Shown here piece after piece: positions 3,006 to 3,247 of a stretch of 5,184 nucleotides of DNA. The notes beneath the pieces were generated by a model, which saw only the letters and a list, made by a program, of their open reading frames with translations, had not been told where the DNA came from and searched no databases. The position numbers and the translations under genes were made by a program. The stretch comes from a virus. Taxonomy: Duplodnaviria > Heunggongvirae > Uroviricota > Caudoviricetes. The first letter of the stretch is position 1, and every line of letters begins with the position of its first letter. Location: the IMG/VR virus record IMGVR_UViG_2703718801_000009, positions 1-5,184 of that record; one strand, written 5' to 3'.

Positions 3006-3206
3006 TCATTTCTCGTTATTTGTCATGCTGGCCGGACGCAGATGCGTTGCATCTGTTGCCAGCCTTCTCCTGCAGGCTTCAATAACCCACGCTGAAAAGT
3101 TACCGGAACCTTTATGTTCAAGGGCGATATTGATCTGTTCAATCATGTGATTGGGGAAACGGATATTGCGGGTTGTGGTTCTGCGGGTCCGGTTTTTCGA
3201 TGACAT
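3006..3206 (-). CDS. Ribbon-helix-helix (Arc/MetJ/CopG-like) small DNA-binding protein, possibly of the YlcI/YnfO prophage family
   Basis: The track ORF is 3006-3266, but an internal ATG at 3206-3204 has a good RBS (AAAGGAAATAAAT before ATG on the - strand) and gives 66 aa: MSSKNRTRRTTTRNIRFPNHMIEQINIALEHKGSGNFSAWVIEACRRRL... This has a beta-strand (RNIRFP) then helix (MIEQINIALEHKG) then helix (NFSAWVIEACRRRL) pattern typical of ribbon-helix-helix proteins. The longer N-terminal extension would overlap the HNH start. Confidence 0.6.
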   Translation of the reverse strand: MSSKNRTRRTTTRNIRFPNHMIEQINIALEHKGSGNFSAWVIEACRRRLATDATHLRPASMTNNEK

Positions 3207-3247
3207 ATTTATTTCCTTTACTGATTGCCATATGACGGGGATTTTAC

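Follow-up and report, generated by a model that had tools for sequence, protein, structure and literature searches.

The minus-strand gene at 3006..3206 of the window, by which we mean the whole stretch of 5,184 nucleotides that was analysed, is with very little room for doubt a member of the YlcI/YnfO (DUF3950) family. The reading that we favour, at a probability of roughly 0.55, is that it is a functional gene for a dimeric ribbon-helix-helix (RHH) repressor that would be made while late transcription is off. The gene itself is ordinary, an extremely common prophage gene that has already been annotated and whose family has been named in Pfam, NCBIfam and RefSeq; there is nothing new in its identity, and the importance of the finding as such is small.

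The open reading frame was listed as 3006..3266 on the minus strand, corresponding to 86 amino acids if begun at GTG. An internal ATG (3206..3204) preceded by the Shine-Dalgarno sequence AAGGA (minus strand, 3218..3214, 7 nt 5′ of the ATG) results in a product of 66 amino acids, MSSKNRTRR...NNEK, terminated by TGA at 3008..3006, and it is this start that an earlier note, made from the sequence, had put forward. The GTG at 3266, which would overlap the HNH start, was rejected as the start, because homologues begin at the ATG and the DNA 5′ of it is unrelated between phage types. Every aligned homologue begins MS[ST]KNR, and PGAP picks the identical ATG on identical or near-identical loci (L001 6157-6357 and L062 4385-4585). 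Profile searches with the 66-aa protein identified PF13132 (DUF3950; E=4e-20; 71.8 bits where the cutoff is 25; residues 21-50), NF041551 (YlcI_YnfO_N; 35.3 bits against a cutoff of 30, residues 10-49) and phrog_949 (E=2.4e-33, residues 1-59). The 551 bp surrounding the gene are 100% identical to many STEC chromosomes, and the RefSeq/PGAP name on such 100%-identical DNA is 'YlcI/YnfO family protein' (WP_000095744.1), so that the resemblance named in the earlier note is confirmed by Pfam, NCBIfam, PHROGs and RefSeq annotation alike. The family core IRFP...NFSAWV is present in the N-terminal part of the protein, residues I15, R16, F17, P18, N36, F37, S38, A39 and W40 being invariant in alignment A1 and R16, F37 and V41 in the more distant set (alignment A4). 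Membership is thus supported by scores above the curated thresholds, by the conserved core and by the lambdoid packaging-adjacent position on the opposite strand. The gene had also been described as the only convincing one on the minus strand, and this holds: the other minus-strand ORFs scanned in the window (76, 84, 114, 128 and 138 aa) gave no Pfam match, and in an O55:H7 locus (97.7% identical) YlcI/YnfO is the sole minus-strand CDS among 12 PGAP features. As a description of the gene, the earlier note is accurate throughout.

Based on ORFs, Pfam and PHROGs, the window comes from the late part of a lambdoid prophage of E. coli. Its plus strand encodes an antirepressor with a P22_AR_N domain (40-609), Rz/Rz1 (832-1155 and 917-1102), a KilA-N protein (1358-1855), a TonB_C-domain protein (2533..2874), an HNH endonuclease (3248..3613; PF01844 E=7.5e-7, phrog_589 E=8e-45), the terminase small subunit (3903..4466; PF03592, phrog_641 E=3e-68) and, from 4463, the beginning of the large subunit. 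The HNH gene is the first gene of the packaging module and is divergent from the ylcI/ynfO-type CDS; the short distance between their start codons noted previously is exactly 41 bp (3207..3247, HNH ATG at 3248). On the other side the TonB_C gene is a convergent neighbour, the two stop codons being separated by 131 bp in which no terminator-like hairpin was found (folds against shuffles, z -0.9 and -0.8). The 113-aa TonB C-terminal-domain protein sits at a bor-like cargo position; PHROGs names its family 'Rz-like spanin', a label that looks like a mislabel because the true Rz/Rz1 pair lies at 832-1155. In being an accessory gene on the opposite strand within the late region, the ylcI/ynfO-type gene resembles the bor-type 'morons' of lambda, from which it differs in having no clearly recognisable promoter or terminator of its own and no compositional contrast (GC 0.445-0.49, similar to the left flank) and in encoding a protein of predicted DNA-binding type, whereas the bor-type product is an envelope protein. 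The HNH-terS gap carries repeat families D1-D3 and I3-I5. It includes five exact copies of ATGTTAAC in both orientations, the palindrome CAGTTAACATGTTAACTG among them (3707-3828; 0.15 expected, and none of 200 shuffles reached five); the ATGTTAAC repeats are probably recognition repeats for the terminase small subunit at cos in an HK97-like packaging module. None of the 5426 complete E. coli genomes contained the intact window (1-5184); coverage was at best 83% at 93.5% identity, or 78% at 97.7%. The window is a mosaic built from widely shared modules.

Selection on the gene was assessed by comparing codons 1-50 with their counterparts in Stx phage 2851, in lambda and in the DLP12 and Qin prophages of K-12. 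These comparisons gave 16-26 synonymous against 5-9.5 non-synonymous differences (dN/dS 0.02-0.11), synonymous sites being near-saturated and codon position 3 taking 16-25 of the 25-31 differences. By contrast, the three plus-strand frames and the two other minus-strand frames contain stops in the window sequence and give dN/dS of at least 0.23. With dN/dS this low and synonymous sites near saturation, the codon comparison indicates that conservation acts on the protein, not the DNA; a recombination linker maintained at the DNA level is excluded because it would not accumulate synonymous changes. The earlier note had also allowed that the expressed frame might be the antisense one on the plus strand, and this does not hold, all three frames there carrying stops.

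Conservation is confined to the first 50 codons (3057..3206), which encode the putative RHH domain, and is followed by a variable C-terminal tail (3006..3071) that differs between alleles, alignment A5 diverging left of about 3072. A mosaic breakpoint lies inside the gene at about this position (codon ~45), homology in nearly all listed Stx-phage records beginning at query position 173, equivalent to 3072 of the window. The breakpoint is sharp and common to dozens of Stx-phage records: on its right, across the RHH head, the HNH gene and the cos region, identity with the window is about 88-93%, and on its left the tail and the cargo are unrelated. It is therefore the RHH head that moves with the packaging module, the tail moving with the variable cargo at its left. 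Of the 93 phage records that matched window positions 2900-3900, 82 span at least 80% of the region.

The N-terminal domain is predicted to consist of a basic arm (KNRTRR), a strand (TRNIRF), helix A (residues 19-32), a turn (GSGNFS) and helix B (34/37 to about 50). Two AlphaFold2 monomer models (pLDDT 72.9 and 70.4) were concordant, with an extended N-terminus, a helix at 19-32, the short turn GSGN and a helix at 34/37-55; both helices had pLDDT 74-89. The strand was not formed in the monomer model, as expected because the ribbon needs the dimer. Structural neighbours were almost exclusively RHH proteins, giving similarity to solved RHH domains, and most of them were type II antitoxins (TacA, Rv0298, CopA_SO, VapB12 and ParD2); Foldseek searches against PDB and against BFVD gave only hits with E>2. 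At the level of sequence, neither the single protein nor a profile retrieved anything significant from PDB (best, the CopG-family chain 9kkd_A, E=0.18), and none of the RHH families in Pfam matched significantly (best, RHH_6, E=0.092, in one of 21 members). Using hhalign, the domain gave no alignment with CopG, and one with Arc (E=0.005 over 22 columns, probability 6.8%) that places TKNIRFPheLIEqIe on the strand and helix A. In its small size, predicted strand-helix-turn-helix order and the G-x-N/S turn before helix B, the window protein resembles Arc and Mnt of P22, CopG, the PutA N-terminal domain, TacA and ParD; it differs from these in that no significant sequence-profile match was obtained and no operator was found in the window. 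The RHH character proposed from the sequence is therefore made likely by the structural neighbours, and the profile search suggested as a check returned a DUF family (PF13132) and no significant RHH family. On these models, RHH is the likely and best-supported fold for the 66-aa protein.

The 150 nt encoding the conserved domain were found in 4184 of the 5426 complete E. coli genomes (77%), at 9564 places and up to 12 times per genome, and are routinely annotated as YlcI/YnfO. All phage contexts examined fall into two classes. In the lambda-type class, including ylcI-nohD of DLP12, nohA-ynfO of Qin and the P0014 loci, about 390 bp, cos included, separate the gene from a small terminase gene of Nu1 type. 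In the HNH-type class, represented by the window, phage 2851, 705R7 and the P0024 loci, it lies 40-41 bp from an HNH gene that precedes cos and TerS/TerL. In both classes the gene reads in the direction opposite to the late operon, with the packaging genes behind it, and the upstream DNA is unrelated between them. The adjacency to packaging genes in cryptic prophages of K-12 that the earlier note had mentioned was confirmed in DLP12, where ylcI (minus) and nohD (plus) are separated by 388 bp, and in Qin, where the same distance separates nohA and ynfO. The window protein is 69-71% identical overall to YlcI/YnfO-type proteins of K-12, with the first 50 residues near-invariant and the packaging-adjacent position and orientation shared; it has another C-terminal tail, an HNH neighbour at 41 bp in place of cos and Nu1-type NohA/NohD at about 390 bp, and no DUF1398 gene nearby.

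Lambda itself carries a copy. A 64-aa ORF on the minus strand of NC_001416 (48112-48303), for which no CDS is annotated in the reference record, encodes a protein identical to K-12 YlcI. It is the gene closest to the right cohesive end, from which it is about 200 bp distant, and reads inward. Its N-terminal domain is as in the window protein, but upstream of it is the cosQ/cosN side and not an HNH gene, and there, as directly upstream of lambda-type copies generally, an approximately 80-bp non-coding block is conserved beside poorly conserved DNA; this block is a better place to seek a promoter or operator. Near-identical lambda right-end DNA was also found on contigs of about 3.5 kb or about 48 kb in assemblies of unrelated taxa, including Streptomyces, Pseudomonas, Cohnella, Nanosynbacter and others (L015-L051), which we take to be, almost certainly, control DNA of sequencing kits. 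Such contaminant copies inflate the family in protein databases with frameshifted 'variants'. A search for relatives with alignment A1 recovered mostly lambda DNA, plus copies from Tatumella in ordinary chromosomal context. The family is a small one: among 1.84 billion representative proteins there were 181 clusters at E<=1e-3, many of them error-laden lambda copies.

The antitoxin-like character of the structural neighbours bears on the suggestion, made in the earlier note, that the gene is a remnant of an antitoxin module. On this account the protein would be the orphan of a two-gene cassette, its conserved RHH head and variable tail serving to neutralise or regulate a partner encoded downstream; in Qin, for example, the co-directional ydfO (DUF1398) begins 57 bp after ynfO. 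A conserved head with a hypervariable tail does resemble antitoxin architecture, and a sub-threshold match to a HicB-like PHROG (E=0.007) points the same way. However, the window contains no co-directional ORF downstream, only the 131 bp before the convergent TonB_C gene, and in DLP12 and lambda, unlike Qin, a convergent gene intervenes. PADLOC gave no match for the 66-aa protein. DUF1398 is not known as a toxin, and overexpression of YdfO is reported to raise oxidative-stress resistance (PMC4077768). A mere remnant is further disfavoured because the solo copy is strongly selected in thousands of genomes. We consider the antitoxin reading unlikely.

More distant relatives occur in phage satellites and genomic islands. 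In E. coli CP027459.1/AP026754.1 (L004/L005, about 1-6900 of the loci), a PICI-like satellite with genes for an integrase, an AlpA-like protein, a D5_N primase, its own TerS and a capsid protein is inserted in terL of an adjoining prophage that has the window's layout. The interrupted TerL frame stops at ...ILIPKNNR after about 93 codons, where the window reads ...ILIPKKNSKST. The replication operon of this satellite is on one strand and its two DUF3950 genes are on the other. One of these encodes 60 amino acids (L004 4590-4772); upstream of it lie two perfect 12-bp palindromes, TGGTACGTACCA, spaced 33 bp apart (L004 4545-4589), which bracket a TATAAT sequence and the second of which abuts the ATG. 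In the other, P0235 (L004 5001-5363, 120 aa), a DUF3950 domain is naturally fused to an N-terminal HTH of TerS-like type (Terminase_2, E=1.6e-11) resembling the N-terminus of the window's TerS; upstream of its gene, at 4891-4980, are about five GTTAAACAC-like repeats, similar to the GTTAAC repeats found in the cos region of the window. Paired sites of the same type as the satellite palindromes, TGGTAnnTACCA, lie 34 bp apart upstream of P0255 (L063 3956-4001, TGGTAGGTACCA and TGGTACCTACCA, abutting the start codon) and are the best-conserved islands of an otherwise diverged upstream region. The P0255 gene heads an HD-domain/AEP-like operon beside SymE-toxin and RhuM genes (L063 4001-6346); it overlaps by 23 bp the start of the gene for a 503-aa HD/HD_assoc protein, and an AEP-like protein follows. 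The arrangement resembles a defence-island operon headed by a small regulator. Paired 15-nt dyads occur upstream of P0246, and P0171 is found in a fimbrial and type I R-M island.

The satellite and island genes (L004 4590-4772, P0235 and P0255) share the Pfam domain and size of the window gene and head, or diverge from, operons of mobile elements. Their proteins are only about 32-34% identical to that of the window, with different residues in the predicted strand, and it is they, unlike the window gene, that have paired palindromes at their start codons; a search of the window for the satellite-type palindrome found none. These palindromes are candidate operators of that DUF3950 subfamily and fit autorepression of the distant relatives, paired sites so placed being typical of a self-regulating protein that binds an operator. 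The mode of action that we infer for the family draws mainly on them.

The satellite copies also raise the question of a role in packaging or in cross-talk, in which the protein would bind near cos or meet satellite homologues and thereby affect which genome is packaged or induced. The gene adjoins cos and terminase genes in two unrelated packaging systems, the P0235 protein joins its domain to a TerS-like HTH in a satellite that sits in the terL of a sibling prophage, GTTAAC-type repeats are present both in the HNH-terS gap of the window and upstream of P0235, and YlcI/YnfO genes appear among the cf-PICIs of Enterobacter (PMC13612085). Against this, the orientation opposing the late transcript predicts expression while packaging is off, and the satellite copies are of low identity and differ in the strand residues. 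In addition, lambda packaging requires no more than small cos fragments in cis. A function of this kind appears improbable for the window gene.

The 41-bp spacer itself was examined since the earlier note had seen in it a shared divergent control region, through which the protein would control the HNH/terminase operon and itself. Its length, 40-41 bp, is constant across every HNH-type phage examined (the window, 705R7, phage 2851 and the P0024 loci), the layout is divergent, and an RHH fold would suit an operator-binding repressor. It contains the ylcI Shine-Dalgarno sequence, an SD-like GGGGA for the HNH gene and a TAAAAT (3245..3240, minus strand) that could serve as a -10 element but has no -35; no repeats or dyads were found in it. 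On the plus strand, a consensus scan of 2400-4000 found no sigma-70-like promoter, near the HNH gene or elsewhere in that interval, and no terminator. In annotated relatives HNH-terS-terL come after the holin, lysozyme and Rz genes on the same strand, an arrangement that by established knowledge is a late operon, and we take these genes to continue the Q-dependent (antiterminated) late transcript that starts at pR′ upstream of holin. As part of that transcript the packaging genes need no promoter of their own. Comparison of the two phage classes bears on this directly: the predicted DNA-reading residues are identical in HNH-type and lambda-type proteins, while in lambda-type phages the upstream DNA is unrelated and cos lies between the gene and Nu1. 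Control of the packaging operon via the spacer is unlikely because the same DNA-reading residues meet wholly different upstream DNA, and we regard the proposed shared control region as quite improbable.

Searches for control elements of the minus-strand gene were extended beyond the spacer. The only sigma-70-like match upstream of ylcI is CTGACA-17-CAGAAT (3336..3308, minus strand, 9/12), which lies inside the HNH ORF; overall the consensus scan found three sites against 1.6 expected by chance. Two direct repeats sharing GGGTGAA, GACGGGTGAA (3297-3306) and GAAGGGTGAA (3313-3322), are spaced 16 bp apart and bracket the -10-like CAGAAT; they lie in different HNH codon phases and could be due to chance. 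No operator-like dyad or repeat common to the HNH-type and lambda-type upstream regions was found. An 11-mer shared by them, GTATTCAGTGT, was rejected as an operator and taken as chance because about 0.25 occurrences are expected and phage 2851 does not conserve it beyond coding constraint. Promoter scans of the window and the lambda right end revealed no convincing promoter on the minus strand, and an Rfam search of the full window identified no RNA family.

The small size of the ORF, the lack of a clear promoter or terminator and the internal mosaic breakpoint might be taken to mean that there is no functional protein gene at all, only an ORF arising by chance, a linker conserved for recombination or an antisense product of the plus strand, but given the low dN/dS at near-saturated synonymous sites, the stops in all three plus-strand frames and the thousands of genomes in which the ORF is both intact and annotated, we regard the probability of this as negligible.

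We therefore return to the repressor reading. Full-text literature searches on YlcI, YnfO, DUF3950 and DUF1398 found no functional study, and none reporting DNA binding or a phenotype for YlcI, YnfO or DUF3950. Two RNA-seq reports, one of an overlap between the convergent transcripts of ybcW and ylcI in K-12 (PMC12288877) and one listing a 228-bp DUF3950 gene in uninduced cells of O157:H7 (PMC7709258), hint at transcription without induction. Starting from the gene, its family, the purifying selection and the fixed position and orientation, which we count as established by the sequence comparisons, we infer dimerisation, DNA binding, autoregulation and the timing of expression. The first ~50 residues would form an RHH DNA-binding domain behind a basic N-terminal arm, and the last ~16 a variable tail exchanged through recombination. 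The gene is a standing right-end component of lambdoid phage chromosomes, lambda included, that always adjoins the packaging module, whether of Nu1/A or HNH/TerS/TerL type, faces away from it and opposes the Q-dependent late transcript. Most likely its product acts as a dimeric, sequence-specific repressor. A weak promoter of its own, in the window necessarily within the spacer or the 5′ end of the HNH gene, may drive expression while late transcription is silent, that is, in the prophage state or early in infection, and convergent late transcription may turn the gene off during lytic growth. The protein probably represses itself; for the window gene such autoregulation is plausible, although on inspection of the sequence neither promoter candidate (TAAAAT at 3245..3240 or CTGACA-17-CAGAAT at 3336..3308) is convincing.

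A broader proposal would make YlcI/YnfO a conserved 'leading-end' regulator through which co-resident prophages, incoming phages and satellites share a DNA-binding network and sense or silence one another. The right cohesive end of lambda enters the cell first on injection, and the gene, being closest to that end and reading inward, could be among the first available. A near-identical RHH domain encoded at up to 12 places in one E. coli genome, together with the related domains of satellites, could be the basis of such a network. We consider this proposal very improbable as it stands.

The interest of so common a gene lies in what its tiny product does, given how strongly purifying selection acts on it. 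A starting motif for DNA-binding tests of the family, TGGTAnnTACCA, comes from the satellite and island relatives. If the protein is a repressor, its target would be an unrecognised piece of lambdoid regulation.
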